Source of the DNA: Escherichia phage UGJNEcP3
Sequence record: OV876907
Length of the DNA stretch: 64,000 nucleotides
Strand: one strand, 5' to 3'
Part shown: positions 15,474 to 63,616 of the stretch, in pieces
Layout: every line of letters starts with the position of its first letter
How positions within the stretch are numbered: the stretch's first letter is position 1
Program-made: the position numbers and the translations under genes
Notes under the pieces: generated by a model
What the model was told of the DNA's origin: nothing
The model's database searches: none
What the model saw: the letters and a program-made list of their open reading frames with translations, nothing else

Positions 15474-15504
15474 TTTGTATCTCCGATAACCATTTATTTG
15501 ATAG

Positions 15505-15540
15505 GTCTATAGTATCATGTTTAAAGCAGATGTAAACACT
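15505..15540 (-). promoter_or_regulatory. early promoter for motA
   Basis: GTTTAC(15532-15537), 17 bp, caTGaTACTAT, then AGACCTATCAA box. Confidence 0.6.
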
Positions 15541-15554
15541 TTTTCACTAAACCC

Positions 15555-15576
15555 AAAAAAGGAACCCGAAGGTTCC
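15555..15576 (-). terminator. intrinsic terminator hairpin (UUCG loop + T-run)
   Basis: GGAACC-UUCG-GGUUCC then TTTTTT on minus strand, right after the micro-ORF stop. Confidence 0.6.
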
Positions 15577-15681
15577 TTACTTTTTAAAGTGAGCTGCTAT
15601 TAAACCTATAGCTAGGCCTGTGGCCAGGCCTAGGATAATAGCAAAGATACAGAGTAACAAGAACTCGACTCCAAGGCTCAT
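15577..15681 (-). CDS. 34-aa hydrophobic micro-protein coupled to gene 52
   Basis: ATG overlaps gene 52 stop (ATGA); MSLGVEFLLLCIFAIILGLATGLAIGLIAAHFKK is one TM helix. Confidence 0.45.
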   Translation of the reverse strand: MSLGVEFLLLCIFAIILGLATGLAIGLIAAHFKK

Positions 15682-17057
15682 AGAGACTCCAAATCTTTAA
15701 CATACTCAGTTACAACATCAGTGGTTTTCCAATATTGATGCTCTTCTTTCTTAGCCTTGGCTTCGAGGGCCAGTTTCTTGGCTTCGTCAGAAGTGATATG
15801 GAAAATGTTCATGGCCACTAGTTTATCGGCATATTCGCCATAGACTTTATTACCGGTCAATTCTTCGGTTAAAACCTTACGGGTCTTACCTTGGATAACC
15901 ACTACACCATCAATAACATCTTTGATAAATGTGGCTTTAGCCAATGCTAGTTTGAAAGCTTCTTCGGTTTCGATGATTTTACCATCAATACGTTTTTGTA
16001 CAAAGGTCTTACGGACCTCAACGAAATCACGAATCAGTTCAACTACATCTTCGTAAACCTTAAGTTTACCTTTTTCATTAATGACGGTCAGGTTTTGTGA
16101 ACGACGTTCGATTAACCCGAAGTCCTTCATGAGTTTTTCGTGTTTCTTATCTTCATCGGTAGGCAATTCATATTCTTTACGAATCTTAACCTTGAAGCCA
16201 AAACCGTTCTCGTCACAGTCATCATCATATGTGATGTACCCTTTGTCTTCCAGAGGGTCTAATACCTTAGCCACATATGTTTCACGGTCATATTTGTATG
16301 GGATTTCCGTGATATGCATTTGGGTTCGAGATGTGAACTTATACGTTCCACGAATCTCATAACTACCTGGTTCAATTTCAACAACTTCACCTCGGAATTC
16401 AGGATAAGCCACTTTAGGCTTGGTTACTCGTTTTTCCTGAAGAACTTGCAATACAGCTTTCTTAACAGAATCAAAACTATGAGGAAGAATATTAGTTGCA
16501 TAACCAGTTGCAATACCGGAAATACCATTAAGAAGAACAGTAGGAATAATAGGCAGATAAAAAGCCGGTGGCTTATGTTCGACATCCGCATGAACCGGAG
16601 CATATTCTGTGTCCTTATAAACTTTTGCAAAGTTACTTCCGATACGAGCAAAAATATAACGAGAGGCTGCAGCCTTTTGAACCAATCGAGAACCGAAGTT
16701 ACCTTGACCGTCTAACAATGGATAGTTGTTGTTCCATGTGTTAGCCATCAAAGCCCCTGCTTCCTGAGCAGAACCTTCACCATGGTGATATCCAAGGTCG
16801 GCTACGCCACCAGCAATAGAAGCTAGTTTGTGGAATTTTTCTTTATTACCACGAGCCATATCAAGACAACGAGCAACTACAAAACGTTGTACAGGTTTAA
16901 AGCCGTCAATCATATTTGGAATGGCTCGGTTTTCGACAGTATACATTGCATAAGCCAATGCTTCGTTGTCGATAATACTTTTTAAGTCACGACGAGTGAA
17001 AGAATCATCGTAAACATCTAAAGCCTGTTTAAAAAGGGTATCAATTACATCAGCCAT
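15678..17057 (-). CDS. 52: DNA topoisomerase II medium subunit gp52
   Basis: 459 aa; GyrA-type N-terminus (AMYTVENRAIPNMIDGFKPVQR), T4 gp52 size and position. Confidence 0.9.
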   Translation of the reverse strand: MADVIDTLFKQALDVYDDSFTRRDLKSIIDNEALAYAMYTVENRAIPNMIDGFKPVQRFVVARCLDMARGNKEKFHKLASIAGGVADLGYHHGEGSAQEAGALMANTWNNNYPLLDGQGNFGSRLVQKAAASRYIFARIGSNFAKVYKDTEYAPVHADVEHKPPAFYLPIIPTVLLNGISGIATGYATNILPHSFDSVKKAVLQVLQEKRVTKPKVAYPEFRGEVVEIEPGSYEIRGTYKFTSRTQMHITEIPYKYDRETYVAKVLDPLEDKGYITYDDDCDENGFGFKVKIRKEYELPTDEDKKHEKLMKDFGLIERRSQNLTVINEKGKLKVYEDVVELIRDFVEVRKTFVQKRIDGKIIETEEAFKLALAKATFIKDVIDGVVVIQGKTRKVLTEELTGNKVYGEYADKLVAMNIFHITSDEAKKLALEAKAKKEEHQYWKTTDVVTEYVKDLESL

Positions 17058-17061
17058 AATT

Positions 17062-17202
17062 TTACCATACTAGTGAATGAATAGCCATAATAACATCGGA
17101 AATAAAAAGCACAACTTGGATAAGTCCGAACATTACTCCATAATACAGTGCTACTAATAAAGCAGCAAGGGCTACTGAGTAGCCCAAGATTTTCTTAATC
17201 AT
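17062..17202 (-). CDS. 46-aa membrane micro-protein (52.1 position)
   Basis: ATG 17200-17202 overlapping ac-like stop; hydrophobic. Confidence 0.45.
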   Translation of the reverse strand: MIKKILGYSVALAALLVALYYGVMFGLIQVVLFISDVIMAIHSLVW

Positions 17203-17356
17203 TTTTAATCATCTTAAGTAAACCGACAGAAGTAGAAAGAACCCAGCCAATAAACAGAAAACTTAAGAATACCGGACCAGGGGCCCACACACCTAAAAAG
17301 AAGCAAACTGAACAGACTATAGCCATAATAAGTTCAATAAAAACTAGGATAACCAT
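17195..17356 (-). CDS. ac: Ac-like 53-aa membrane protein
   Basis: ATG 17354-17356 with GAGGA SD; two hydrophobic segments; position between stp and 52 as T4 ac. Confidence 0.5.
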   Translation of the reverse strand: MVILVFIELIMAIVCSVCFFLGVWAPGPVFLSFLFIGWVLSTSVGLLKMIKND

Positions 17357-17366
17357 ATTTTCCTCA

Positions 17367-17444
17367 TTAGCGTCCGAAGACGCCTTTAGTTTTAAGATTG
17401 TTACGATAGAACTGCATCACATGCTCGTTATGGAAATTACTCAT
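17367..17444 (-). CDS. stp: Stp peptide (25 aa)
   Basis: ATG overlaps ndd stop (TAATG); [25 protein letters not shown] matches T4 Stp as recalled. Confidence 0.75.
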
Positions 17445-17893
17445 TAGTATGCCTGCAGAATGAATTTAAAGTTATCAGCCAACATGCGGTTCATTTCTTC
17501 CAGTGTCTGGAGGTCGGAACTATGATTGCGGGTGAAAGCCATTGCAATTTGACCCTTACCAAAACCGGTGGTCAGAGGTTTCATCTTAGAAGCTGGTACA
17601 TAAAGAACTTCATACACAACACCGTTCACTGCCATGGTGCGAGCTGATTGAGAACGTTTCTTACGAATGTTAGCCACGATGCCATCAAGACCTTGGGCCG
17701 AACGTTGATTACCGACATAAAAACGAGCAGCTACGACACGAGAATCAGCTCCACCTTTAACAAAGAAGTAGAAGCCTGGCTGAGCAGAGATTTCTTTAGA
17801 AGGTTTACCATTTTGGTATTCACCGTTCTTAACATAAGCAACAGTAGTAGCACCAGCAGACAGAACGTTACGGCGAGTCATATAAGTATTCAT
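17444..17893 (-). CDS. ndd: nucleoid disruption protein Ndd
   Basis: 149 aa; ...[10 protein letters not shown]...[25 protein letters not shown]...[20 protein letters not shown] matches T4 Ndd (memory). Confidence 0.9.
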
Positions 17894-17942
17894 ATCAATT
17901 TCCTCAGTAGATTAATGTTTTGTTATCCGGTCAACGAGAACC

Positions 17943-17971
17943 ATTATAACATGATTCTCGAGGTTGTAAAC
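17943..17971 (-). promoter_or_regulatory. early promoter for ndd
   Basis: GTTTAC(17966-17971), 17 bp, caTGtTATAAT; inverted repeat CGAGAA/TTCTCG flanks -10. Confidence 0.55.
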
Positions 17972-18315
17972 TATTTTTGTAGCTGTTCTAAAATAAATCC
18001 GCTCGTATAAAAAGAAGCATTATAAACCTTGTTCAGCGGGTTCAAAGCCTGTCCGTAAGTATCACGTAGTTCTTTGATAACATTTTCATAGCTTACATAA
18101 TAACCACTATGATAATACGGGTCCATACTCATACGAAATTTAATAAACCGATAAAATCCTGTTTCTGGGTCTTGAACGAAAACGAAATCGGCACCCATCA
18201 TAATTTTTGAATCTACGCCAGGAATCATACTTTGATTGAATGCCACCGATGCATCCTGAAGGCTGAGTTGTTTAAAGAACATTACCTTAGCATTACCAAA
18301 AAAGATTTTAGACAT
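17971..18315 (-). CDS. hypothetical protein (114 aa from internal ATG)
   Basis: ATG 18313-18315 with AAGGAAA SD after upstream stop; track ORF extends to 18339. Confidence 0.6.
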   Translation of the reverse strand: MSKIFFGNAKVMFFKQLSLQDASVAFNQSMIPGVDSKIMMGADFVFVQDPETGFYRFIKFRMSMDPYYHSGYYVSYENVIKELRDTYGQALNPLNKVYNASFYTSGFILEQLQK

Positions 18316-18325
18316 GATAATTTCC

Positions 18326-18538
18326 TTATTCAGCGTCAACAGAAATAGCCATCAGTTCATCAACAGTAAGACACTGTACACTAGGTCCTACACAAAAGCG
18401 CTTAGTTGAATCATAAAGGTCCGTGGCATTAACAGGTTGTAATTCGGTCCCAACTTGCAAAGGAGAAATGCGAATCAGTTGTTGACCGTTATGTAATACA
18501 AAGCTCTCGCCGACTACCACATCTTTAAAAAGTTTCAT
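18326..18538 (-). CDS. hypothetical protein (70 aa)
   Basis: start moved to MKLFKD ATG with GAGG SD overlapping the micro-ORF stop. Confidence 0.55.
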   Translation of the reverse strand: MKLFKDVVVGESFVLHNGQQLIRISPLQVGTELQPVNATDLYDSTKRFCVGPSVQCLTVDELMAISVDAE

Positions 18539-18548
18539 AATATTTTCC

Positions 18549-18659
18549 TCAGAAGTTAAAGAATACACGTACATGGTCAATCATAAAAACGATTGGGAAA
18601 ATGCTCAATACCATTAACAACACAAACATGTTCCAAATTGCTTTAAGTAAGTTTTTCAT
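18549..18659 (-). CDS. 36-aa hydrophobic micro-protein
   Basis: ATG 18657-18659 with GGAG SD just after an early promoter; MKNLLKAIWNMFVLLMVLSIFPIVFMIDHVRVFFNF. Confidence 0.45.
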   Translation of the reverse strand: MKNLLKAIWNMFVLLMVLSIFPIVFMIDHVRVFFNF

Positions 18660-18679
18660 AATCATCTCCATTAGTTGAT

Positions 18680-18716
18680 AGGTCTATAGTATCATGATTA
18701 ATGGAGATGTATACCG
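18680..18716 (-). promoter_or_regulatory. early promoter (GTATAC -35 variant)
   Basis: GTATAC, 17 bp, caTGaTACTAT, AGACCTATCAACTAA box. Confidence 0.55.
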
Positions 18717-18804
18717 ATTTATGCCAATTTCCACAACAATAAACTAAAACATACGCAAATCACTGGGATACAGGCCATCCAAATAAGGCACCACGTTTTG
18801 CTAC

Positions 18805-19071
18805 TCAAAACACCACCTCTTTTATCTCAATCAATCCCCTGTACAATGCAGTGCGGAGGTCATAAAGAATATCTATGCCGTCAACATTATCCAGTTTTCC
18901 ATCAATAAGCTTTTCTAAATCTTCCTTTGATGCGATTAAAGGACGGAGAAATTTACATTCAGAAAGAGATAACTCTGTAGTAACATCATCACCTTCACCT
19001 GACGCGTCATACATAGCGGCAACAACCATGCCTGTAACTTTGTGTTTAGCGTAATATAATTTGATATCCAT
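18805..19071 (-). CDS. hypothetical protein (88 aa)
   Basis: start at MDIKLYY ATG with GAGGAG SD; track N-extension is translated promoter. Confidence 0.6.
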   Translation of the reverse strand: MDIKLYYAKHKVTGMVVAAMYDASGEGDDVTTELSLSECKFLRPLIASKEDLEKLIDGKLDNVDGIDILYDLRTALYRGLIEIKEVVF

Positions 19072-19127
19072 TTTGTTCTCCTCATTAGTTGATAGGAAGA
19101 TAGTAACACCATCCATGGCATTATAAC

Positions 19128-19355
19128 TTAAGCAATGGAATGTTTTGGATGCTGTTTAGCCCAACCTACTAAAAATTCCCAATACTTTTCGATAGAACCG
19201 TAAAGATTAATTACCGTAGGAGTGGTAACTTCAGTCCAATCTTTTTGAACATTACCTGTTTTAATATTGGTAAGCTTGTGAAACACTTTACCGTTCTCAA
19301 ATTTATATTCTTCGATTTTACGATTGATTGCTTTAACAGAAGTAATAGAAGTCAT
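19128..19355 (-). CDS. hypothetical protein (75 aa)
   Basis: start at MTSITSV ATG with GAGAGGAAA SD; track N-extension is translated promoter. Confidence 0.6.
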   Translation of the reverse strand: MTSITSVKAINRKIEEYKFENGKVFHKLTNIKTGNVQKDWTEVTTPTVINLYGSIEKYWEFLVGWAKQHPKHSIA

Positions 19356-19369
19356 AATATTTTCCTCTC

Positions 19370-19408
19370 GTGTAGTTGATAGGAAGATAGTAACACCATC
19401 CATGGCGT
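19370..19408 (-). promoter_or_regulatory. early promoter
   Basis: GTTTAC(19400-19405), 18 bp, gTGtTACTAT, CTTCCTATCAACTAC box. Confidence 0.55.
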
Positions 19409-19431
19409 ATGTAAACACTTATTTTAAAAAA

Positions 19432-20013
19432 TTATAAGGCGAGATACCAGCCGTTGTAATTGCTCTTACGGACTAGCTTTGTGATGGCTTCTCTGTCGCC
19501 AGAGAACTTAGGAGTGAACAGGACGTCGCCTGCCTCATTTACTGAAGTGTCGAATATAATTATACAGTCTGCAACTTTATGATTCAAGAGCGGTCCCAGG
19601 TTAATCCCTGTTCCATAAGGGAAGTCACCGGAGTATCCTGTAGTACAGGAAATCCACTTAGAATCTGATTGATGGGTCTTGACCTCTACACGTAGTCCAC
19701 AATACATAGGATGAGCTAAAACATCCCATGCATAGGTATAAGGGTCGTCATGGTCTTCCAGACCACTGTTAACATATCCTTTCAACCAATCAGCCACCAT
19801 ATACTCGGCATACGTTGCAATGACACACCGAGTCAATACTTCTTTCTTATCTTGGGACGGGTCTTGGCTTAAGGAATACAGTACGGTATCCTTAATCTTA
19901 ACCTTCATTTCGCCTGTTAAATCAGATGTCTTCAGGGTAAATGTCGGCATCGCTGCCAATCGGAGTAGTCCCGGGTTCGTCTTCACCATAAATGCCTCGA
20001 ATATGAAGTTCAC
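19432..20013 (-). CDS. hypothetical protein at the denB position (start uncertain)
   Basis: 193-aa ORF; upstream part overlaps next ORF so true start is probably an internal ATG (19950 or 19908); DenB identity unverified. Confidence 0.45.
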   Translation of the reverse strand: MNFIFEAFMVKTNPGLLRLAAMPTFTLKTSDLTGEMKVKIKDTVLYSLSQDPSQDKKEVLTRCVIATYAEYMVADWLKGYVNSGLEDHDDPYTYAWDVLAHPMYCGLRVEVKTHQSDSKWISCTTGYSGDFPYGTGINLGPLLNHKVADCIIIFDTSVNEAGDVLFTPKFSGDREAITKLVRKSNYNGWYLAL

Positions 20014-20230
20014 CGTAATAAATTCGGTCGTCGGGTTCTAAAGTATCAGAATCCGCTAAAGGAAACTCGCCTTCGACCACCTCATCGCATTCTAAAAAAG
20101 CGTAATGAACATCGCCAGGGTGTTTAACGAGCTTAGCACAATAAACAGTACCTGCTTTATGGAACCCGCGCAAATTAGAAATCTTGATATCACGTTCACC
20201 GACATTCAGGTAATTAATCATTTTACTCAC
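19922..20230 (-). CDS. hypothetical protein (102 aa)
   Basis: early-strand ORF, acidic C-terminus. Confidence 0.5.
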   Translation of the reverse strand: MSKMINYLNVGERDIKISNLRGFHKAGTVYCAKLVKHPGDVHYAFLECDEVVEGEFPLADSDTLEPDDRIYYGELHIRGIYGEDEPGTTPIGSDADIYPEDI

Positions 20231-20420
20231 CGAAATAAGAAATACGAACCTCTAAACAATGAGCATAAGCACCCATCGCGTCCAGTTGTGCAATCAGTAA
20301 CCCTTGTTGACGGATATCAAGAGTTTCAAAAACACTACCTTCAATAAAGGTTTCTAGTGCATTAATTTTAAGAACTAACTGGTCGTATTCTTCAACTACA
20401 CGCGCTTGAAAACCTAACAT
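20223..20420 (-). CDS. hypothetical protein (65 aa)
   Basis: GAGGAAA SD before ATG 20418-20420; UUCG hairpin at 20437-20452 upstream. Confidence 0.55.
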   Translation of the reverse strand: MLGFQARVVEEYDQLVLKINALETFIEGSVFETLDIRQQGLLIAQLDAMGAYAHCLEVRISYFGE

Positions 20421-20458
20421 AATTTCCTCTTAGGAGGCCGAAGCCTCCGTTTATTGAT

Positions 20459-21490: not shown

Positions 21491-21504
21491 AATATTTCCT
21501 TAGA

Positions 21505-23715: not shown

Positions 23716-23722
23716 ATTTTTC

Positions 23723-24510: not shown

Positions 24511-24515
24511 ATTTA

Positions 24516-27222: not shown

Positions 27223-27433
27223 TATAATTCTCCTTCCAGAATTCAGTGCCTTCAGCAGTGATTTCACGGAACACTGCATAGATAGGGGTTTTATCACCCT
27301 GATTTTCGTATACATAAACCGACGATAAATGAGAAAACGTATCAGAATATTCCTTTTGAACCACGATTAAATCAGGGTTGAACAGAACATCTTCAAATTC
27401 TTCACGAGTCGAGTTCACAGTAACTTTAGCCAT
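27209..27433 (-). CDS. hypothetical protein (74 aa)
   Basis: early promoter at 27458-27496 then GAGAGGAAA SD. Confidence 0.55.
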   Translation of the reverse strand: MAKVTVNSTREEFEDVLFNPDLIVVQKEYSDTFSHLSSVYVYENQGDKTPIYAVFREITAEGTEFWKENYNDQI

Positions 27434-27457
27434 TTTATTTTCCTCTCATTTGTTGAT

Positions 27458-27496
27458 AGGGTAATAGTATCACACTACTACCCTGTTGTATACCAC
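27458..27496 (-). promoter_or_regulatory. early promoter (GGTATAC -35 variant)
   Basis: GTATAC, 18 bp, gTGaTACTAT, TACCCTATCAACAAA box. Confidence 0.5.
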
Positions 27497-28100: not shown

Positions 28101-28129
28101 ATTATAACATGGCTCTCGATAAAGTAAAC
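28101..28129 (-). promoter_or_regulatory. early promoter
   Basis: GTTTAC(28124-28129), 17 bp, caTGtTATAAT. Confidence 0.5.
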
Positions 28130-28680: not shown

Positions 28681-29186
28681 ATTGTTCTCAATTCAATAAA
28701 ATCTACGAGTTCGGCATAAGATTTGCGGAACATTACTTGGCGGCCACCGATGACAACCTCATCTTCTGGTATTTCGTAAACAGCAAGATAGAATCCTTTA
28801 GAAGATAATTCTTTACGCTCTTCACGAGTGAACCAGCGCATCATATCATACTCACTGGCAAAAGCAAAATGGTAGAGGTTAACAAACCAGCCTGGAATAT
28901 AATCGTCGCAGCCTTCATAATCAGGTCGTTTCCACTTAGTTCTAATGGTTTTATTAGAATTTTCTACCAGCAACTTATCTTGACTTGGTAGTGGGATATT
29001 TTTATTAATGCTATGATGATGTCTAAAAATAGGTCTGTCTAAACCTACTTCTAATAACCAGCCTTCACTCCATGAGTCTGTTGTACTTCTATACGGGGTC
29101 ATTTGAGTACAGAGGTCTCGTCGTATTGTGATAGTGTTTCCATCATCTAAGATACTGAACGATGACTCAACTCGATAAATTTTCAT
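28677..29186 (-). CDS. hypothetical protein (169 aa)
   Basis: early promoter at 29208-29245 then GAGGAGAA SD. Confidence 0.6.
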   Translation of the reverse strand: MKIYRVESSFSILDDGNTITIRRDLCTQMTPYRSTTDSWSEGWLLEVGLDRPIFRHHHSINKNIPLPSQDKLLVENSNKTIRTKWKRPDYEGCDDYIPGWFVNLYHFAFASEYDMMRWFTREERKELSSKGFYLAVYEIPEDEVVIGGRQVMFRKSYAELVDFIELRTI

Positions 29187-29207
29187 TTTGTTCTCCTCAT
29201 GTTGATA

Positions 29208-29245
29208 GGGTAGATAATATCATGTCATGAGGAGAAGTAAACACT
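29208..29245 (-). promoter_or_regulatory. early promoter
   Basis: GTTTAC(29237-29242), 17 bp, caTGaTATTAT, CTACCCTATCAAC box. Confidence 0.55.
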
Positions 29246-31793: not shown

Positions 31794-32528
31794 TTAACCT
31801 CTAATCAGTGAAAAAATTGAAGCATTCAGCGGAAGACCTTTTTTCAACTTCAATTTGTCAATAAAAGAAAGGTGTTCTAAACGCTCCAGACCTTGAATAA
31901 TTTTATCATACATATCGTAACGCGTTTCTGCTTCAGACAATTTAAACTTGACACGCCAGTCAGGTCCACCAATTAAAGATTTAAGACCTTTTTCCATAGT
32001 ACCAATTGAAGCATTAGAACCATGAATACGAGCCTTAACCGCGATGACAGAAGGGGTCTTATCAGTAGCTCCTGATTTAATAAGGTCCTTAAGTCGTTTT
32101 TCACGCTTTTTAAGGCCTCTTTGGGTGTCTTTAATATTTTTAACGATTTTACGAATTTTATAATAGTTATCGGGGGTGACTTTAAAACTATTAGGCATTT
32201 TAGAACTACCTGAAATACGGACCGCTAAACGGGTTTGTGCACGTTTCAATTCGTCTAGAGACAAATCGGCCCGTAAGCTGTTATACTTGATTTTAACTGG
32301 GATTACATTACCCTCAATATAGCCGATATCATTATTAAAACGTTCAAATGAAATCTTATCACTAACTGAATTCTCATCAAAGCTCTCGCCTGAATAAGCA
32401 CACACTTTTTGTTCGAGAAGTCTACGAACATACTTACTAGACAGATTGAAGTCCTTACCACGTTTATAAGCAGAAGCTTTGGTGTGTTTGCGGCGGTTGT
32501 AAACCTTTAACTCAAATTCAGGGGTCAT
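31794..32528 (-). CDS. hypothetical basic protein at the srd position
   Basis: 244 aa K/R-rich; syntenic with T4 srd; not sequence-verified. Confidence 0.5.
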   Translation of the reverse strand: MTPEFELKVYNRRKHTKASAYKRGKDFNLSSKYVRRLLEQKVCAYSGESFDENSVSDKISFERFNNDIGYIEGNVIPVKIKYNSLRADLSLDELKRAQTRLAVRISGSSKMPNSFKVTPDNYYKIRKIVKNIKDTQRGLKKREKRLKDLIKSGATDKTPSVIAVKARIHGSNASIGTMEKGLKSLIGGPDWRVKFKLSEAETRYDMYDKIIQGLERLEHLSFIDKLKLKKGLPLNASIFSLIRG

Positions 32529-32563
32529 GGTATTTTTCTCATCTTACGGACGATTAGTTGATA

Positions 32564-32601
32564 GGTTCTATAGTATCATGTTGCTTGGTAAAGTAAACAC
32601 T
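32564..32601 (-). promoter_or_regulatory. early promoter
   Basis: GTTTAC(32593-32598), 17 bp, caTGaTACTAT, AGAACCTATCAACTAA box. Confidence 0.55.
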
Positions 32602-32667: not shown

Positions 32668-33282
32668 TCAGTAAGAAAGAACGGAAAGATTCCAAATGGT
32701 GTAATTATTCCATTTAGGATTTCTCTCAATAGAGTCTACGCGCAGCGTAGTTCCCGCAGGGAACATCATCTCATCTTCATCATTAATTAATTGTAAGTTT
32801 GCTACACGTGTAGATTCAGGAAATGCGCCTGGGAACTCTTCAGGGGGCGCAGCACATAACATTTTAAAGATTTCTTCCTGATAATTGTACACAAATGGTG
32901 CATCATTAATACAAAAGATATTAAATGTGCCGTAGAAGTTATAAGATGCGAAATTCCTTGCCACGTTGAAGTCTTTAGAGAAGCTCATCACGCGGTCGAA
33001 TTCAATTACCGCACCTACACACATTGTGGACTCTAGATACCTCATAGTCTTTTTAGATATGCCGCGATAGAGCTTATCAGGCACTACAGAAGTCAGGTTC
33101 TTACGAATAATTTTGTTCAGAGTTTCCTGGATAGAATCAGGTTTATTTTCCATACACTGCCAGAGCGTGCTCTGTTCTAAATCAGAATACACCTCATCAA
33201 TTTCTATCTGAGTATTCTCACGGAAATCATCGCATTTGACATTGTTGATAAATTCTGCTAATTTATAGCTTGGATATAACAT
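32668..33282 (-). CDS. Mod-type mono-ADP-ribosyltransferase (ModA/ModB family)
   Basis: 204 aa; R-S-E-type motifs: YRG, SFS, E-x-E-like EDEMMFPAG; tandem with a paralog. Confidence 0.75.
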   Translation of the reverse strand: MLYPSYKLAEFINNVKCDDFRENTQIEIDEVYSDLEQSTLWQCMENKPDSIQETLNKIIRKNLTSVVPDKLYRGISKKTMRYLESTMCVGAVIEFDRVMSFSKDFNVARNFASYNFYGTFNIFCINDAPFVYNYQEEIFKMLCAAPPEEFPGAFPESTRVANLQLINDEDEMMFPAGTTLRVDSIERNPKWNNYTIWNLSVLSY

Positions 33283-33299
33283 ATTATTCTCCTCAGTTG

Positions 33300-33340
33300 A
33301 TAGAAAGATAGTACCACAAGCCTCCTTGCCTGTAAACTAA
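33300..33340 (-). promoter_or_regulatory. early promoter
   Basis: GTTTAC(33332-33337), 18 bp, gTGgTACTAT, CTTTCTATCAACTGAGGAG. Confidence 0.5.
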
Positions 33341-33930: not shown

Positions 33931-33959
33931 ATTATAACATGAAGGGAGGAGGTGTAAAC
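33931..33959 (-). promoter_or_regulatory. early promoter
   Basis: GTTTAC(33954-33959), 17 bp, caTGtTATAAT, GACCTCTAAATCA. Confidence 0.55.
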
Positions 33960-40008: not shown

Positions 40009-40302
40009 TTATTCACCTGTAACTTCTTTAACGATATTTTTGTTATCGAAATTAGCATCGCAGTACAGAACATAGTTATACTGCATAACACCACCTGAAG
40101 CTAATTGGTCTGACACTTCTTTAGCCATATCAGGGCGGTCACGTTTAGTGATGTTCATGATATCAGCATAAATCTGATGTTCGACTGATTCTTGGTCTGC
40201 AGTCATAGACCATTCACAAAGGTCTTTATCCAATCCGGCTGTAACTGGAGCTGTACCACATGATGCTACTGTAAGGATTGCTGCGATTAATAACTTTTTC
40301 AT
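40009..40302 (-). CDS. sp: Spackle-like secreted protein with lipobox-like signal peptide
   Basis: 97 aa from ATG 40300-40302 (GAGGAG SD); MKKLLIAAILTVASCG signal; size and position as T4 sp. Confidence 0.65.
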   Translation of the reverse strand: MKKLLIAAILTVASCGTAPVTAGLDKDLCEWSMTADQESVEHQIYADIMNITKRDRPDMAKEVSDQLASGGVMQYNYVLYCDANFDNKNIVKEVTGE

Positions 40303-40323
40303 TTGAATCTCCTCGTTAGTTGA

Positions 40324-40363
40324 TAGGTCTATAGTATCACTACCATAGACCGTTGTAAACACT
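40324..40363 (-). promoter_or_regulatory. early promoter for sp
   Basis: GTTTAC(40355-40360), 18 bp, gTGaTACTAT, AGACCTATCAACTAACGAGGAG. Confidence 0.55.
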
Positions 40364-41007: not shown

Positions 41008-41337
41008 TTAGATTTCCTCACAGAAGGCCCATTCAGCATGATAAACCGTAGCGCCTTTAGTATCATTTAAACAAACCACATCTACCGGAGCAATTACACG
41101 ATAAAGACGGGGTTCTCCTCCCACTGAACGAGCTGCTCGTCCAGCATAAATCTTAGCCAAACCGATATCTTCAGTAAAGAACACACGATTTAGGTTTTTC
41201 TTACGACCGGTTTCAGACAGAACTCCTGTTTCCTCGGGAGGACAAAGCATATTACCGATATTAGCAACACTGCAACTTCCGTGATAATACACTTTATATT
41301 CTGTTTTACAGTCGATGGTTTTCATTTTGTTCTCCAA
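41008..41337 (-). CDS. hypothetical protein (109 aa), extra relative to T4 order
   Basis: lies between dmd and 41; motifs YYHGS, NRVFFTED, VYHAEW. Confidence 0.6.
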   Translation of the reverse strand: MENKMKTIDCKTEYKVYYHGSCSVANIGNMLCPPEETGVLSETGRKKNLNRVFFTEDIGLAKIYAGRAARSVGGEPRLYRVIAPVDVVCLNDTKGATVYHAEWAFCEEI

Positions 41338-41342
41338 GTTGA

Positions 41343-41381
41343 TAGGTCTATAGTATCATGCCTATAGGAGATGTAAACCCT
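41343..41381 (-). promoter_or_regulatory. early promoter
   Basis: GTTTAC(41373-41378), 17 bp, caTGaTACTAT, AGACCTATCAACTTGGAG. Confidence 0.55.
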
Positions 41382-49261: not shown

Positions 49262-49494
49262 TGTTTAACGATAATGATTTGTGCGGTTGATTTACGTTCA
49301 GCGACGATAGCCCAGATTAAAGCCACTACCCAACCAATCATCGTCCATCCTAACAGGAGATTAAGGAAGAAGATTCCGACATTGTTACGAGTGCCTCGCA
49401 GAAGAGCTAGAATCCATGGTAAGAAGTAAGCGATGAACATCATAACCAGAGAACCGAATCCTAAAACACCAGCACTAACGATTAAAGCTTCCAT
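49258..49494 (-). CDS. imm: Imm-like superinfection-immunity membrane protein
   Basis: 78 aa with two TM helices; directly downstream of gene 43 as T4 imm; early promoter upstream. Confidence 0.6.
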   Translation of the reverse strand: MEALIVSAGVLGFGSLVMMFIAYFLPWILALLRGTRNNVGIFFLNLLLGWTMIGWVVALIWAIVAERKSTAQIIIVKQ

Positions 49495-49519
49495 TGTAAT
49501 TTCCTCTTAAGTAGTTGTT

Positions 49520-49559
49520 AGGAAGGATAATACCACGTTCCATGTGGTATGTAAACACT
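49520..49559 (-). promoter_or_regulatory. early promoter for imm-like gene
   Basis: GTTTAC(49551-49556), 18 bp, gTGgTATTAT, CCTTCCTAACAACTAC box. Confidence 0.5.
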
Positions 49560-52567: not shown

Positions 52568-52568
52568 A

Positions 52569-55220: not shown

Positions 55221-55244
55221 AATGTTTCCTTATCAAGACAAAAA

Positions 55245-55658: not shown

Positions 55659-55714
55659 AATATTTTCTCTCATTTGGTTGGTAAATGTATTATAAATCTA
55701 TATTTTAAAGCAAT

Positions 55715-58271: not shown

Positions 58272-58521
58272 CGTTATAAGCATCCTTGATGCATGATTCA
58301 GCCATATGAATTAATGTTTCTGGAGTATCATCTACCATTACATTAAAGCTAAATTCTACAGCCCAATCGGTAGCAACATAAACTTTAATAAGCTCGCCGG
58401 TATCACGAGTGCTCACGGCTTCAAACCAGAACTTAATTGTACTAGGTTGACCATCATCATCAATAACTATACAGTCGTGTTCCAGTTCAAGTCCCGATTT
58501 TTTGAATTCATCTAAAGTCAT
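58258..58521 (-). CDS. hypothetical protein (46.1 position)
   Basis: 87 aa between 47 and 46. Confidence 0.55.
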   Translation of the reverse strand: MTLDEFKKSGLELEHDCIVIDDDGQPSTIKFWFEAVSTRDTGELIKVYVATDWAVEFSFNVMVDDTPETLIHMAESCIKDAYNDEDF

Positions 58522-59540
58522 CGTGTAACCTCATTATAAAGTTGTGCAGCCATAGTCTTAAGGGCTTTAACATCGGCTTCAGTGTGGCCATCAGGAAGGG
58601 CATCGATATAATCATACATCATATCCAAGAGGGATTTAACTTCGTCTTCCTCTTCAGAATCATCAATATCAACACTATTATCTACCTTAGACACAATACG
58701 TAAAGAGTGAACAACCTTTTCAAGCTCTGATTCGAACTTAGTAAGACCGTCATCGATTTTATCGACTATAACACGAACTGCGATATTTGTAAAATCTTTG
58801 TAATCGATAGTCTCGTTAGGATAATGAATCTTACGATGCCAACAGGTTTCATTAATGATGAAATCCATTTTATGAGTTTCGGTATCGAAAATCCAGAAAC
58901 CACGAGGGTCGTTCTCATCGCCTGCAGTAAGGGTCCATGGCGTACCAATGTACTTGACGTTTGCTGCATCAGAAATGGTGTGGAAGTGGCCAGACCATAC
59001 TTGCTTATACTTCTTAAGGAAATCAGGTTCTAAACCATGTGATTTCATTCCTTTATAGAAATAGAAACCATTTAATTCCCAGTGGCCAATACAGAAATCT
59101 GCCGTGGTATTTTTGATATGGTCCATGATATCAGTGGTGTTTTCTTCACACATCCATGGAATCAAATCAATTTCGGTGCCATCAAAGTTAACCGTAGTAG
59201 GTTTCTCAATAACCTTGATATGGTCATATTTACCCAGAACTTCAGAAGCTGCGTTCGGCGTCAGGGTATTTTTGTAGTGGGCATCATGGTTACCAACGAC
59301 CGTATACATGGTAATGCCACTTTCTTTAAGCAAATCAGAGATTTCGCGAGCGAATTCCATACACTTATGGGTAATTGCTTTACGAACGTCAAAGATATCA
59401 CCGTATTGAATCCACACGGTAATACCATTTGCTTTAGAATAATTGATAGCGTCTTGGATACCTTGACGTTGGATATTTTGTACCCACACATCATCGGCCT
59501 TCACTCCAAGGTGCCAGTCACCTGTGTTTAATATTTTCAT
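58518..59540 (-). CDS. 47: recombination nuclease subunit gp47 (Mre11/SbcD-like)
   Basis: 340 aa from MKILNTGDWH ATG; phosphoesterase motifs GDWHLG, GDIFD, GNHD, GHWE, GHFH. Confidence 0.9.
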   Translation of the reverse strand: MKILNTGDWHLGVKADDVWVQNIQRQGIQDAINYSKANGITVWIQYGDIFDVRKAITHKCMEFAREISDLLKESGITMYTVVGNHDAHYKNTLTPNAASEVLGKYDHIKVIEKPTTVNFDGTEIDLIPWMCEENTTDIMDHIKNTTADFCIGHWELNGFYFYKGMKSHGLEPDFLKKYKQVWSGHFHTISDAANVKYIGTPWTLTAGDENDPRGFWIFDTETHKMDFIINETCWHRKIHYPNETIDYKDFTNIAVRVIVDKIDDGLTKFESELEKVVHSLRIVSKVDNSVDIDDSEEEDEVKSLLDMMYDYIDALPDGHTEADVKALKTMAAQLYNEVTR

Positions 59541-59680
59541 AAGCCGAGCACCGTTATCGCAATGCAAAATAAAATTATTGAGATGAACCCATCAGGAGTA
59601 GAAAAGAATCCTATCCAACAGGCTCGTGTGAATGTGTAGAATGCCATGAATAACACGACATATCCTAAAAGTAATTCCAT
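59537..59680 (-). CDS. 47-aa membrane micro-protein coupled to gene 47
   Basis: GAGGAG SD; MELLLGYVVLFMAFYTFTRACWIGFFSTPDGFISIILFCIAITVLGL; stop overlaps gene 47 ATG (ATGA). Confidence 0.45.
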   Translation of the reverse strand: MELLLGYVVLFMAFYTFTRACWIGFFSTPDGFISIILFCIAITVLGL

Positions 59681-59722
59681 ATGTTCTCCTCAGTTGGTTC
59701 ATTTTATCATCCGAATATAAAG

Positions 59723-59745
59723 CAAAAAAGGAGCCTAAGCTCCTT
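59723..59745 (-). terminator. hairpin + T-run terminator
   Basis: minus-sense AGGAGC-UUAG-GCUCCU followed by TTTTTT. Confidence 0.5.
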
Positions 59746-59996
59746 TACCAATTAATACGCCATACAGAGGTTCATGAGAAGACCTGAACTTGATAGGCTT
59801 ATAGGTAATAGTACCTTCATTTTCCGCTTTAATACGAGCAGCTTCAAATTTAAGTATCATCTCATTTTTGTCAGATTTAATCTTATCAAAATCCATCGAA
59901 TTCGTCATTCATAAAACCTCTTAAACTTTTTCGTATTCGTCATTCATAGCTTAAAAATCTGGATGTTCGTCTTTCATTAGCCACCTGTCCATGTTA

Positions 59997-60197
59997 TCAT
60001 CGTTGCCACCACTTCTTAAGTTGATGTGAATCCACCCAAACCTTGGCTACAGGCTCAATCCGAAAAATTTCATCGGAATACTGCCCAACCATTTTATATT
60101 CGGTTTCAGTCTGCTTAATACAAATATTACCGTATGAGCGAAGTCTGAAGGCGGCTCCAATAAGAAGCCGTTTAAAGGGTTTATTTACTAGCGCCAT
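59997..60197 (-). CDS. hypothetical protein (66 aa from internal ATG)
   Basis: start placed after upstream ORF stop; basic. Confidence 0.45.
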   Translation of the reverse strand: MALVNKPFKRLLIGAAFRLRSYGNICIKQTETEYKMVGQYSDEIFRIEPVAKVWVDSHQLKKWWQR

Positions 60198-60492
60198 TGA
60201 TAATTTCCCAAATCTGTTTACGCGTAGTTTCCCACATAACTCTAACGATTTCGTCAGTAGTTGGTTGACGGTAAATACCACGTAATTTAATTATAGCATA
60301 TTTGTAAGCTTCGAAATTGTTTTCGAGAACAGCGCCCTGAGCATGTGTATTAAGACGCTTAATTTCACGGGCATTCTTTTTAAGAATTTTGGCAGCTTGG
60401 GAAGCGGCTTCTTTAGCATTATTCTCTTCTAAACGCTTCTGGGCTTCTTCAATTTGCTCTTCGGTCAATTGAGAAATGTCGGTGCTTTGCAT
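60181..60492 (-). CDS. hypothetical protein (103 aa)
   Basis: early-strand ORF in the 47-55 interval where T4 carries alpha-gt. Confidence 0.55.
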   Translation of the reverse strand: MQSTDISQLTEEQIEEAQKRLEENNAKEAASQAAKILKKNAREIKRLNTHAQGAVLENNFEAYKYAIIKLRGIYRQPTTDEIVRVMWETTRKQIWEIINGASK

Positions 60493-60493
60493 A

Positions 60494-60742
60494 TTAATCC
60501 TTGTAATTCAGTTTTATATAAAAATCTTCGTCGGTAACGTGATAGTTATAAGTTAATGTTCCTTTTTCAGCTTTAATTTCTACCGAATCAGGGTGTTTTG
60601 GGTCTATTACAATAGGAAGCTTGGCAATATCCTTAAGATACATTTTAAGAACATAAGGAATTGCCGAATACTCTCCATCTACTTCTTCTAAAAGGCCTAC
60701 CAGGTTAATCTTGAGTTCCATATAAAAAATCCAGCTCACCAA
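60494..60742 (-). CDS. hypothetical protein (82 aa)
   Basis: ORF directly downstream of gene 55. Confidence 0.55.
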
Positions 60743-61262
60743 CTTTAGATTCGGCGCTCTTATCAGACCCTGGCGCTTTAACTAAAGAGGTTTCATACTG
60801 AGTCATTTTGTCGTAAATATCCTGGATAAAAGTTTCATCTGCGATACCTACCATGTCGTCGTCATTGGCGTCATAAACGTTATGGACGAAGTAGCTGTAT
60901 TTCTTTGCCATTTCTTTACGTTCTTTCTTGATACGCTGAACAAAGGCATTAAAACAAGCCATAGTGATATATGCATGTGGGTTGTCGTATTTTGTTTCGT
61001 CGAAGTTATGAAGACCTTTAATAGAGGCTTCGATTCCATCAGCAATCATTTCTTGCTTCCAAGATTGGGTATATCCGGAGAAGTTGAAACGCTTAGAAAG
61101 GCCTTCAGCAATGAGCATAATAGCCAAGCCGATAACGTCGTTCTGACGAACTATTTTATTAGGGTCGGTATTTTCTCGGAGTTCTGTTTTCCACTGGGTA
61201 ATGGCTTTCAGAAGCTCCTTATTATTTACATAGTTATTTTTAGTCAGTTTAATTTCGGTCAT
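60705..61262 (-). CDS. 55: late-promoter sigma factor gp55
   Basis: 185 aa; [15 protein letters not shown]....[65 protein letters not shown] matches T4 gp55 (memory). Confidence 0.92.
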
Positions 61263-61328
61263 TGTTACCTCAGATAACTCAAATCATAGGTCTATTATAT
61301 CATAGTATTTGGAGACCCGTTTAAAGCA

Positions 61329-61592
61329 TCAACGGAGTAAGCAATAAGCCTGAAATACTGTTTCAAGGATTTGTATGAACTCGGGATAAGAAATTGTATC
61401 AGTACATCCATGTTCGGACATATATCCGCAAAATTCTTTAAAAAGTTCCGGATAATCCCGATGGTTGTATTTGGAAATACGAGACTTCCATACTAAAGAA
61501 GTCTCACCACAAACAAACTCAACATCCATACAGTTATCTATTAAGAAAAATCCGAGACCTTCATAAGCGAGGGTGGTGGATATGGGTTTCAT
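61329..61592 (-). CDS. hypothetical protein (87 aa)
   Basis: 55.x-type early ORF. Confidence 0.5.
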   Translation of the reverse strand: MKPISTTLAYEGLGFFLIDNCMDVEFVCGETSLVWKSRISKYNHRDYPELFKEFCGYMSEHGCTDTISYPEFIQILETVFQAYCLLR

Positions 61593-61855
61593 TGTAGGAA
61601 TCGAGCTCCTTCTAATGCATCATCAAGATTATCAAACTCATCGACGTAATCAATACCGCCAACTTCATCTTTAGCGTATAGCCAGTACCGTTTAAATTCA
61701 TATTCGATAATAAAGTGGTCACCTTCAATCTGGAGAGCCCCATCACCATTAAATTGGACTGCATAACCTGTAAAGCGGACATCATTCAGGAGTTCTTCTT
61801 TCATAGCAATCATTTCCAAGTTTTTATCGTAATTAGAGAGTTTTATTTTAATCAT
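61589..61855 (-). CDS. hypothetical protein (88 aa)
   Basis: 55.x-type early ORF, start/stop overlap with neighbours. Confidence 0.5.
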   Translation of the reverse strand: MIKIKLSNYDKNLEMIAMKEELLNDVRFTGYAVQFNGDGALQIEGDHFIIEYEFKRYWLYAKDEVGGIDYVDEFDNLDDALEGARFLQ

Positions 61856-62096
61856 TTAAATAATCCTCAAATTCATTTAATGTCATGCCTTCATCCCAAG
61901 CTATTTTAGGATCCGGCATTTTCATATAAGTGGTCTTAGAGCTTATAGGAAATATCCTAAAATCGCGATGACTTCCACTTAGCATATTAGCCGCTTTTAT
62001 AATGGTTTCACTATTATTCATCATAGGGGTACGTTGGAAACCGGCTAAAGCTTTAAGGACTATTATAACCGATACATCTTCAGGCAAATTACTCAT
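61848..62096 (-). CDS. hypothetical protein (82 aa)
   Basis: 55.x-type early ORF. Confidence 0.5.
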   Translation of the reverse strand: MSNLPEDVSVIIVLKALAGFQRTPMMNNSETIIKAANMLSGSHRDFRIFPISSKTTYMKMPDPKIAWDEGMTLNEFEDYLND

Positions 62097-62422
62097 TTAG
62101 CTGCCTTAACAATTTTCAGGTCAACGAATTTTTTCTTACGTTGATTCTTCATACGACGGATGGTTTTGTCTGTGATTTCACCTGGCTGCCAAGCTTTAGA
62201 TTCGACACCAAAGGCGGCCACATCAAACTCGTCGAGAATATATTGAACCAGGATTTCACGAATACCGTTCTTACCAATTTTTTGGTCTTTAGAGTGCATG
62301 ATTGGTAACAGTTCAGCAACCCATTGGTCAAGAACCTGAGGAGTTACAAAGCCAGTTTTCATCAGTTCATTAACTTTATCGAAAGCGAAAGAGTTCAGTA
62401 CGTTTTTAATAGCTTGTGACAT
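62093..62422 (-). CDS. hypothetical protein (109 aa)
   Basis: 55.x-type early ORF; basic C-terminus. Confidence 0.55.
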   Translation of the reverse strand: MSQAIKNVLNSFAFDKVNELMKTGFVTPQVLDQWVAELLPIMHSKDQKIGKNGIREILVQYILDEFDVAAFGVESKAWQPGEITDKTIRRMKNQRKKKFVDLKIVKAAK

Positions 62423-62491
62423 AATAATTTCCTCAGTTTAAAAATTTATAATCCGTAGGACCATTATACTCTGGTCCCAAGAGTTTGTAAA

Positions 62492-62692
62492 CTATTTTTG
62501 TGCTAATGCACCTTTCCAACCTTCATACATCATTGCGGCTGATATTAATATTGCTCCTGCGCATTTTGAATATTTGTTATTCCAAAACCAGTTTAGAAAA
62601 ACTTCGTCATCAATACCTTGAGCTATCATATTTTCAAAGAACTGACGACGGGCTTCAGCAATTCGTTGTGATAATTTAGATTCAGGATTCAT
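62492..62692 (-). CDS. hypothetical protein (66 aa)
   Basis: early ORF; hydrophobic C-terminal segment. Confidence 0.5.
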   Translation of the reverse strand: MNPESKLSQRIAEARRQFFENMIAQGIDDEVFLNWFWNNKYSKCAGAILISAAMMYEGWKGALAQK

Positions 62693-62824
62693 TTAAATTT
62701 TCCAGTTGCCGTTTTCATCAATAAATTTAATCCAGTCATTTACTGACCACTTAGTCGTATCGCCTTTTGGAGTAACATTTAAAGTGTATAATCCTTGTTT
62801 AAAAAGCATACGTTTGATATTCAT
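62693..62824 (-). CDS. hypothetical small protein (43 aa from internal ATG)
   Basis: GAGGAAAAT SD before MNIKRM ATG; track ORF to 62917 overlaps upstream gene. Confidence 0.4.
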   Translation of the reverse strand: MNIKRMLFKQGLYTLNVTPKGDTTKWSVNDWIKFIDENGNWKI

Positions 62825-62831
62825 ATTTTCC

Positions 62832-63125
62832 TCAGCTGTAACGATAGCATTCGTTTGATTTACGTTTTGCAACTCGATGAGAAGTATTGTAATCGGGTTC
62901 ATCGTCGCTGTAAACATCTTTTTTCAGTTTTCTCACTTCTTTACGAAGTTGGCGGTTCATTTCATTCTTAACTTCAGAATCAACGCCGCTAAAGCGTTTC
63001 CATTTATCTGACCGGAAGATATTTTCATTCAAAGTTTCTTCCGATACGCCATCAGGTGCTTTACGTCTAGCAATGCAATTAAAATCTCTAGATGGCAATT
63101 CTTTACGACGGATAGTTTTACCCAT
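62832..63125 (-). CDS. hypothetical basic protein (97 aa)
   Basis: K/R-rich early ORF. Confidence 0.5.
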   Translation of the reverse strand: MGKTIRRKELPSRDFNCIARRKAPDGVSEETLNENIFRSDKWKRFSGVDSEVKNEMNRQLRKEVRKLKKDVYSDDEPDYNTSHRVAKRKSNECYRYS

Positions 63126-63127
63126 AG

Positions 63128-63382
63128 TTACCTCAACAGTTTGTATCCAATAAGGTTTTTAATGTACTGGATGTCTTTGATATCCAAATCCAACTTAAGG
63201 TCTTTCAGACGGTCGGCCAGGGTCAAAAAGGTTACATGCTTCCAATTCTTAACAGGACAGCAATAAGTCTTAGGACCATTTGCAATTTCAATATTCTTAT
63301 CAGTGACGGTGAGAAAAATTAGGCGCTCATCATCCAGATTAAGGGTGATGACATTTTTCATTGAATGCAATTTCAGGCTCAT
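63128..63382 (-). CDS. hypothetical protein (84 aa)
   Basis: early ORF coupled to upstream micro-ORF. Confidence 0.5.
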   Translation of the reverse strand: MSLKLHSMKNVITLNLDDERLIFLTVTDKNIEIANGPKTYCCPVKNWKHVTFLTLADRLKDLKLDLDIKDIQYIKNLIGYKLLR

Positions 63383-63557
63383 AATTTAATTTCCTTAGCT
63401 ATCGAACAAAATACACCACGGTCACAAATCATTTTAATATTAAGGTCAATTATGGTATACCACACGTCTAGGCTAGATATTTCAGTTACTAGAACAGCTT
63501 TGCCGTTGATTGAATAATACTGGTTGACTTTAATTTCTTTATCTTGGATAGTCATAA
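63381..63557 (-). CDS. hypothetical small protein (58 aa)
   Basis: GAGGAGAA SD after early promoter at 63578-63616; not in ORF track. Confidence 0.4.
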
Positions 63558-63577
63558 TGTTCTCCTCATGTGTTGAT

Positions 63578-63616
63578 AGGATAGACTATAACACGTGAGG
63601 AGAGGAAGTAAACACT
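63578..63616 (-). promoter_or_regulatory. early promoter
   Basis: GTTTAC(63608-63613), 17 bp, gTGtTATAGT, CTATCCTATCAACAC box. Confidence 0.5.

Follow-up and report, generated by a model that had tools for sequence, protein, structure and literature searches.

A conserved box at the predicted start sites of T4-type early promoters in a Dhakavirus: a possible start-site and initial-transcribed module

What keeps a nine-nucleotide sequence nearly unchanged just downstream of the -10 element at one early promoter after another? The question is raised by a 64,000-nucleotide (nt) stretch of Escherichia phage UGJNEcP3 (record OV876907; hereafter the window), in which an initial annotation had described a recurrent promoter element followed by a conserved box, CCTATCAAC. 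Over 8 kb the window is 100% identical to Escherichia phage UGJNEcP4 (OV877765.1), a Dhakavirus of the JS98 group (Straboviridae, Tevenvirinae), and its identity to JS98, IME08 and QL01 is about 94-95%. We give an even chance to the reading that the box serves very strong sigma70 promoters as a start-site and initial-transcribed module, read in cis by host RNA polymerase.

We found nine exact copies of CCTATCAAC in the window, all nine on the minus strand (18682-18674, 19096-19088, 19383-19375, 27460-27452, 29209-29201, 32565-32557, 40327-40319, 41346-41338 and 63580-63572), whereas shuffled sequences gave 0.47 expected copies and a maximum of three. Three more promoters carry variants that match at eight of nine positions: CCTATCAAA at 15505-15497, TCTATCAAC at 33304-33296 and CCTAACAAC at 49522-49514. 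The range 15495-63616 therefore holds 12 box sites, in agreement with the earlier count of at least twelve sites sharing one architecture, and a thirteenth copy with two mismatches (7/9) lies just outside it, upstream of asiA (13462-13454). Every copy begins 3-4 nt past a -10 hexamer (TAnnnT, mostly TACTAT) with TGn before it, and this extended -10 is present at 12/12 in-range sites. A GTTTAC or GTATAC -35 with a 17- or 18-bp spacer is found at 11 of the 12, and a GGAG/GAGG ribosome site followed by ATG stands 15-30 nt downstream of the box. The order proposed in the initial annotation, from the -35 through spacer, extended -10 and box to the Shine-Dalgarno (SD) sequence and ATG, thus describes 11 of the 12 sites; site 19127 departs from it with a degenerate -35, GTTATA. 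Two overlapping near-matches, 59797-59789 (one mismatch) and CCTATAAGC at 59805-59797 (two mismatches), were set aside as chance; they lie within a listed open reading frame (ORF), 59735-59908, and have no -35.

Genome-wide counts were made on the whole Dhakavirus phage genome (segments L001-L004) and compared with most of the T4 genome (L005-L007). At this scale, 22 of 36 predicted early promoters carry at most one mismatch to CTATCAAC at the box offset, and the sole exact copy without a promoter is on the plus strand at genome position 89911, among baseplate genes. A generic sigma70 scan could not separate the sites from background (61 found, 55.8 expected), unlike the T4-specific promoter pattern, which did. 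Across the 36 promoters, information content reached 1.6-1.9 bits at -15, -14, -12, -11 and -7, and an A-rich UP-like region gave 0.56-0.83 bits for A at -43 to -39. The genes downstream, in sense orientation, include orthologues of the T4 immediate-early genes motA, asiA, modA, srd, sp, imm and cef, together with a motB.2-like ORF and small ORFs of the ndd-denB variable region. Judged by their sequence, we classify the sites as sigma70-dependent T4-type early promoters, with an A-rich UP region, a GTTTAC -35, a TGn extended -10 and a TAnnAT -10. Both the assignment to the T4 early class and the description of the box as a conserved element outside the sigma70 hexamers are supported, and the promoter class is textbook T4 biology seen in a JS98-like phage.

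We then asked how far the box extends beyond this phage. T4 early promoters have TACTAT followed at the same offset by acaACTATCAAC, tacCCTATCAAC or agaCCTATCAAC, so that the T4 form can be written (A/C)CTATCAAC, 3-4 nt past the -10; because T4 carries the same box, the box is not new. At most one mismatch to the box is found at 10/33 T4 early promoters, and several more carry weaker copies. The T4 early promoters (Pe), reportedly treated by Liebig & Ruger in 1989, by Wilkens & Ruger in 1994 and by Miller et al. in 2003, share with ours the GTTTAC -35, the 17-18-bp spacer, TGn, TAnnAT, the A-rich -40 region and a location upstream of immediate-early gene orthologues. They differ from ours in frequency and variant only: a good box is present at 22/36 promoters here vs 10/33 in T4, and the predominant variant is agaCCTATCAAC here and mostly acaACTATCAAC in T4. 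In 18 orthologous promoter pairs between the two phages, identity was 0.6-0.8 at -2 to +5 and mostly 0.2-0.5 in the spacer. T4 early promoters have been called 'uber' UP/-35/TGn/-10 promoters whose alignments 'reveal additional regions of consensus' beyond the RNA-polymerase elements (Hinton 2010, PMC2988021), and relatives prefer C at -3 to -1 in published logos, which end at the start site (Nolan 2006, PMC1524935). A full-text literature search for CTATCAAC with 'early promoter' returned nothing relevant.

A 33-nt probe that runs from the extended -10 through the box to the beginning of the ribosome site matched 1,032 phage records, with 17-19 places per Dhakavirus genome. The hosts of the matching phages are Escherichia, Klebsiella, Shigella, Enterobacter, Salmonella, Yersinia, Citrobacter, Erwinia and Acinetobacter. 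The Acinetobacter phage Berthold, of a different subfamily (Twarogvirinae), repeatedly shows GTTTAC-N18-TGnTATAAT-nnnCTATCAAAT in its early region, and the box takes the form CTATCAAAT in this T4-like phage. The box was not found in RB49 (Krischvirus), which has TTGACA/TATAAT promoters, or in 30 T4 middle promoters with mapped starts. Taken together, these comparisons point to the box as an old, position-specific and early-class-specific part of the GTTTAC-type promoter. It is not peculiar to this phage and appears to be part of the extended consensus already recognised for early promoters of T-even phages.

Where does the box lie relative to the start of transcription? We applied the T4 spacing rule, by which the start is the 7th nt after the -10 hexamer. 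Most starts of the 30 mapped T4 middle promoters fall on that nucleotide (Hinton 2010 Table 1, PMC2988021), and the T4 record's note on the early promoter Pe133295 gives the same -10-to-start spacing. Placed by this rule, the predicted start is the A of CCT-A-TCAAC, 7 nt from the -10, a distance that grows to 8 nt in three copies where a base is added. On this placement the box would span -3 to +6, with CCT as discriminator DNA (-3 to -1), A as +1 and TCAAC as +2 to +6, and the RNA would begin AUCAAC. The initial annotation had the whole box transcribed as the 5' end of each mRNA; under the predicted start this holds for AUCAAC and fails for CCT. Information content across the 36 promoters peaks at -3 to +1 (0.84-1.29 bits), with a second peak at +5, and because conservation is highest at -3 to +1, a role at the DNA level is indicated at least as much as an RNA tag. 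No genome-wide 5'-end data set for T4 was located in the literature search.

On the reading that we favour, host RNA polymerase would read the box in cis and no phage factor would be needed. The pyrimidine(-1)/A(+1) step, T/A, would fix initiation 7-8 nt from the -10. The G-less, A/U/C-rich initial transcript would avoid the Y-G steps that stall initial transcription, and a polymerase gripped tightly by UP, -35, TGn and -10 would thereby still escape quickly. The same sequence would provide a short unstructured leader ahead of a GGAG ribosome site that doubles as a RegB/S1-type cleavage motif. Base composition is in line with this proposal: the G fraction at +1 to +10 is 0.07 in this phage and 0.10 at T4 early promoters, compared with 0.19 at T4 middle promoters and 0.21 in the background, and 19/22 box promoters have no G at +1 to +10. 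A Y|AU(C/G/A) start is also seen at other phage promoters of great strength, such as lambda PL (AUCAGC), T7 A1 (AUCGAG) and T5 N25 (AUAAAU). The initial transcribed sequence is known to modulate escape strongly, with Y-G steps near +6 slowing escape and acting as the main brake (Heyduk & Heyduk 2018, PMC5961368), and escape should be limiting where UP, -35, TGn and -10 contacts combine (PMC2988021). A close parallel is in the initial-transcribed effects of the T5 N25 type (PMC5961368; PMC12464699), which share with our promoters a conserved +1 to about +10, a very strong promoter limited by escape and the avoidance of Y-G. The T4-type box differs from the T5 N25 region in its sequence and in also covering -3 to -1.

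Several points weigh against this proposal. The start at the box A is a prediction, for this phage and for the box-bearing T4 early promoters alike, and the role of the box in start selection and escape is likewise a proposal. The box is dispensable at some orthologues, since the T4 motB.2 (P8.1) promoter and one regB lineage have none, and among early promoters about 40% in this phage and about 70% in T4 have no good copy. The G-poor initial region is in part a consequence of the box sequence, which makes it weak as independent support. TA and CA steps are mildly unfavourable (Heyduk & Heyduk, PMC5961368), and the box holds both. Finally, a generally optimal initiation sequence would be expected in RB49 promoters too, yet it is not found there. 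We nonetheless prefer a cis-acting module because the box is strictly linked to promoters at a fixed distance from the -10 with a conservation peak at -3 to +1, and because it is confined to the strongest (early) class, spread to Acinetobacter phages and dispensable at individual promoters.

The transcribed part of the box allows another explanation, in which 5'-AUCAAC... is an RNA tag at early mRNA 5' ends and some factor, of the phage or of the host, would read it to control stability, processing, capping or translation. As to capping, C-C-T-A-T-C-A departs from the NAD-capping promoter consensus, HRRASWW. A tag would be in keeping with a box that is essentially promoter-only, and so always at a 5' end, with its restriction to the early class, with unstructured early leaders and with the handling of early mRNAs as a class by RegB/S1 (PMC3014915). 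We consider it quite unlikely, given that the strongest conservation, at -3 to +1, is mostly untranscribed, that just about 6 nt of the box would be in the RNA and that many early promoters have no box. RegB/S1 is known to depend on GGAG together with 3' sequence, not on the 5' end (Durand 2006, cited in PMC3014915). No Rfam family corresponds to the tag, and Rfam 15 covariance models run over the whole window gave no match at gathering score.

Another reading makes the box a DNA operator over the start, at which a factor would act to silence T4-type early promoters 2-4 min into infection. The mechanism of early shut-off is unexplained and requires neither AsiA nor ModA (PMC2988021, PMC3014915). 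Apart from the elements that RNA polymerase recognises, nothing early-specific other than the box is strongly conserved; the box overlaps +1, an ideal position for a repressor, and middle promoters have none. Its clade distribution broadly parallels MotA-type middle-mode switching, RB49 having neither (Nolan 2006, PMC1524935); we set this co-distribution with MotA aside as uninformative, the parallel being at clade level only. We regard an operator as highly improbable. Shut-off is described as general, yet 40-70% of early promoters have no good box; there is no convincing dyad, the sole symmetry (TGATA-N9/10-TATCA) having variable spacing and poor helical phase; and no candidate protein was identified. 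More broadly, a box (-3 to +6) that serves as a recognition site, in DNA or at the RNA 5' end, for a phage factor treating early units as a class is in our view very unlikely, and the operator version of it would be the most interesting.

A different kind of explanation denies the box a sequence-specific function, or allows it little. The box would hitch-hike with the -10 in early-promoter cassettes descended from one ancestral promoter and homogenised by recombination, in the manner of PeSL shuffling. Possible traces of such exchange are seen in this phage. A 34-nt promoter segment is repeated identically (19406-19373 and 19119-19086, about 290 bp apart) in the ndd-denB variable region, and the downstream duplicate (19127) has lost its -35. 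The shared MDGVTIFLST N-terminus reported in the initial annotation is indeed there, as a translation of this duplicated segment. The promoter with its -35 at genome position 61603 (L002 about 16,520-16,610) was paired by script with T4 promoter 65413 upstream of denV (L006 about 15,330-15,420). The flanks of this pair (the AT-rich upstream region and GGAGAACACTAAAATG) are near-identical, the core from spacer to leader is wholly different and only T4 has the box there, which looks like a cassette-type replacement of the promoter core between conserved flanks at ipII/denV. T4 itself has nearly identical early-promoter cassettes, each about 80-90 bp long, that form a family, ttttttcacaaaac-GTTTAC-N18-TACTAT-acaACTATCAACtactgatacggatttGGAGAATaaaATG; their identity begins about 20 nt before the -35 and extends as far as the start codon (L005 27080; L006 20696 and 5384; L007 48087, 44674 and 27876).

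Recombination between early-promoter cassettes in T4-like phages, the ndd region included, has been described for PeSLs (Arbiol 2010, PMC2839356; Comeau 2014, PMC4122927). Like those cassettes, the promoters studied here are repeated early promoters with SD and ATG, some beside terminator-like hairpins, concentrated in variable regions such as ndd-denB and bearing signs of duplication and exchange; the 34-nt duplicate and the swapped ipII/denV core are consistent with PeSL-type recombination between copies. Three minus-strand hairpins lie directly upstream of promoters: at 41408-41395, with a UUCG loop and a T-run, before promoter 41378; at 15578-15559, before the motA promoter; and at 24306-24293, before an early promoter. 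All three are G+C-rich with UUCG or GCAA tetraloops followed by T-runs, and most box promoters have none there. This terminator-plus-promoter layout resembles the PeSLs of RB49/phi1, T4/PST and KVP40/nt-1. In PeSLs, however, the stem-loop stands upstream of the -35 and acts as a terminator, whereas the commoner inverted repeat here encloses the -10 and box by way of spacer and leader. We judge cassette descent unlikely as the explanation for the box. Gene conversion evens out contiguous tracts, yet the spacers next to the box are unrelated between copies, each being matched to its own gene's leader. The box and its offset are also kept from phages of Enterobacteriaceae to an Acinetobacter phage of another subfamily with unrelated flanks, and a box kept at the same offset amid unrelated flanks indicates selection.

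The repeat continues past the box into the ribosome site. Exact GGAGAACAAAA follows the box and runs into the start codon at 29196-29186, 19081-19071 and 41335-41325, minus strand. It fits the 11-nt RegB/S1 cleavage motif of T4 early mRNAs, GGAGRAYARAA, as given for Durand 2006 where that work is cited in PMC3014915. Because of this fit, the ribosome-site half of the repeat would be a known target of early-mRNA inactivation; the likeness concerns that part of the repeat and not the box.

The free positions of the promoter, namely the spacer, discriminator and leader, may carry a second code in the form of inverted repeats. In both phages the -35/-10 spacer is complementary to sequence past the -10, either the discriminator or the ribosome site. 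The discriminator pairs show matched changes in both arms across promoters (GGTCT...AGACC, GGGCT...AGCCC, AGGCT...AGCCT, GGGTA...TACCC). In minus-strand examples with the ribosome site as partner, TTCTCCTCATG at 29236-29226 pairs with CATGAGGAGAA at 29201-29191, ATCTCCATTA at 18708-18699 with TAATGGAGAT at 18673-18664, and TCTCCTCA at 63603-63596 with the SD arm TGAGGAGA at 63568-63561. Mean spacer/leader duplex energy was -9.15 kcal/mol for matched pairs in this phage and -9.68 in T4, compared with -6.76 and -5.88 for mismatched pairs, and the matched mean was reached by 0/20,000 permutations. RNA reading through the promoters from upstream is predicted to fold at -21.1 kcal/mol (z -6.1) for promoter 63613, -19.4 kcal/mol (z -5.4) for 29242 and -16.2 kcal/mol (z -3.8) for 18714. 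Short RNAs beginning at or next to the predicted starts are essentially unstructured; one example is the 24-nt RNA that begins at 29207, a single position 5' of the predicted start. Taking a ribosome site as paired at an unpaired probability below 0.3 and as free above 0.6, the SD is predicted to be paired in read-through RNA and free in the promoter's own RNA at 10/36 promoters of this phage and 10/33 of T4.

The pairing between spacer and ribosome site recurs with different arms at the orthologous promoters of regB, motB.2 and nrdC.8. At regB, five of six phage lineages are predicted to have an SD-hiding hairpin of -18 to -22 kcal/mol with differing arm sequences and registers. RNAalifold found no consensus structure for seven regB-promoter haplotypes, because each lineage pairs in a different register. 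Permutation and per-sequence folding were used instead. Ortholog retrieval gave six close Dhakavirus relatives for ModB and two promoter haplotypes for motB.2, too few for covariation. We propose that the upstream read-through transcript would fold and bury the SD at about 30% of promoters, and that the promoter's own transcript, without the 5' arm, would leave it exposed. T4 e, soc, 49 and I-TevI are arranged in this way (Uzan & Miller 2010, PMC3014915): an upstream arm pairs with the ribosome site, and a promoter between the arms gives a translatable transcript, as is predicted here. In those genes the internal promoter is late (TATAAATA) and the arrangement delays expression, whereas here the promoter is early and sigma70-type, and its own -35/-10 spacer forms the 5' arm. 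Early-promoter examples of SD-sequestering hairpins are not listed in that 2010 review (PMC3014915).

Such hairpins suggest one more reason for conservation, that TATCA of the box is kept as the complement of the extended -10 TGATA, with which it would form the apical helix of the read-through RNA hairpin. UGAUA (or UGGUA, with a G-U pair) is predicted to pair with UAUCA inside the SD-sequestering stem at promoters 29242 and 18714 and at Dhakavirus regB. We consider this highly improbable as the cause of conservation: n of TGn and position +2 do not covary, since in T4, in this phage and in the Acinetobacter phage the box has T at +2 whether n is A or G; where n is T, the single box copy examined pairs in another register; most box promoters have an incompatible stem (GGTCT/AGACC type) or none; and by nearest-neighbour estimate a 5-bp stem with a 9-10-nt loop would be barely stable alone. 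With no covariation and a variable spacing, TGATA-N9/10-TATCA was rejected both as a dimer operator and as an RNA helix. TATCA is the exact reverse complement of TGATA at all TGA-TACTAT box promoters (for instance 41344-41340 with 41358-41354), which is probably incidental.

Inverted repeats were also seen in a second, box-less group of early promoters, with TGT-TATAAT followed by a GGnnCTC-like sequence (-35 at 28129, 17971, 62492, 2407 and 33959, minus strand). At four promoters of the group an inverted repeat encloses the -10, as in GAGAGCC-atgtTATAAT-GGCTCT, and at 33959 the -10-proximal AUGACCUCUA pairs with the ribosome site UGGAGGUCAU. These hairpins might stabilise or process upstream mRNA.

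Two further functions for the box were considered and rejected. For a sigma70 promoter-proximal pause element, no hexamer in CCTATCAACTAA or CCTATCAACTAC has A at 2 and T at 6, and TATCAA ends in A. For an IHF site, WATCAANNNNTTR, TATCAA fits the first half, but in none of the three phages compared (this one, T4 and the Acinetobacter phage) is there a conserved TTR part, where it is present at all.

The window crosses the start of the linear record and runs from gene 59/33/rnh and the tail-fibre block through asiA, motA, ndd and rIIB/rIIA to the dexA-dda-srd-modA/B region and genes 41, 43 and 45, ending with gene 55 and nrdH. All the promoter units are on the minus strand. The unit at 63553..63613 has -35 GTTTAC (63613-63608), -10 TATAGT (63590-63585), the box at 63580-63572 and ATG at 63555, opening a 58-aa ORF. 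Upstream of imm, 49492..49556 comprises -35 GTTTAC (49556-49551), -10 TATTAT (49532-49527), the variant box CCTAACAAC (49522-49514) and ATG 49494. A 105-aa ORF upstream of dmd is served by 41323..41378, with -35 GTTTAC (41378-41373), -10 TACTAT (41355-41350), box 41346-41338 and ATG 41325. The same -10, TACTAT, is found upstream of sp (spackle) in 40300..40360 (-35 40360-40355, -10 40336-40331, box 40327-40319, ATG 40302), upstream of modA in 33280..33337 (-35 33337-33332, -10 33313-33308, box TCTATCAAC 33304-33296, ATG 33282) and upstream of srd in 32526..32598 (-35 32598-32593, -10 32575-32570, box 32565-32557, ATG 32528). Upstream of the motB.2-like ORF, 29184..29242 has its -35 at 29242-29237, -10 TATTAT at 29219-29214, box at 29209-29201 and ATG at 29186.

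The remaining units within the range all have a TACTAT -10. The cef unit, 27431..27493, has -35 GTATAC (27493-27488), -10 27469-27464, box 27460-27452 and ATG 27433. In the ndd-denB variable region, 19353..19416 (-35 19416-19411, -10 19392-19387, box 19383-19375, ATG 19355) is accompanied by its duplicated copy 19069..19127, with the degenerate -35 GTTATA, -10 19105-19100, box 19096-19088 and ATG 19071. A 36-aa ORF follows 18657..18714, with -35 GTATAC (18714-18709), -10 18691-18686, box 18682-18674 and ATG 18659. Upstream of motA lies 15471..15537 (-35 15537-15532, -10 15514-15509, box CCTATCAAA 15505-15497, ATG 15473). Outside the range, the asiA unit 13422..13494 has its -35 at 13494-13489, -10 TAATAT at 13471-13466, the degenerate box CCTATCAGA at 13462-13454 and ATG at 13424. 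Elsewhere in the genome, outside the window, this phage has three tandem genes for Alt-like RNA-polymerase ADP-ribosyltransferases (L003 29074-35337); the T4 record has one full-length alt gene and two short fragments, annotated there as an old partial duplication.

For annotation, these results mean that spurious ORFs starting MDGVTIFLST, which arise because ORF callers extend two ORFs into the promoter duplicate, should be dropped, and that early transcription units can be predicted from the promoter pattern. If the box tunes start choice and escape at extremely strong promoters, it would be useful for promoter design. A 9-nt start-site sequence kept from coliphages to Acinetobacter phages, in the early class only, could equally point to the missing mechanism of early shut-off. 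The complementarity between spacer and ribosome site further suggests, on the predicted folds, that for many early genes translation relies mainly on the RNA made from the gene's own promoter. If true, read-through (delayed-early) expression in T4-like phages would have to be interpreted differently.

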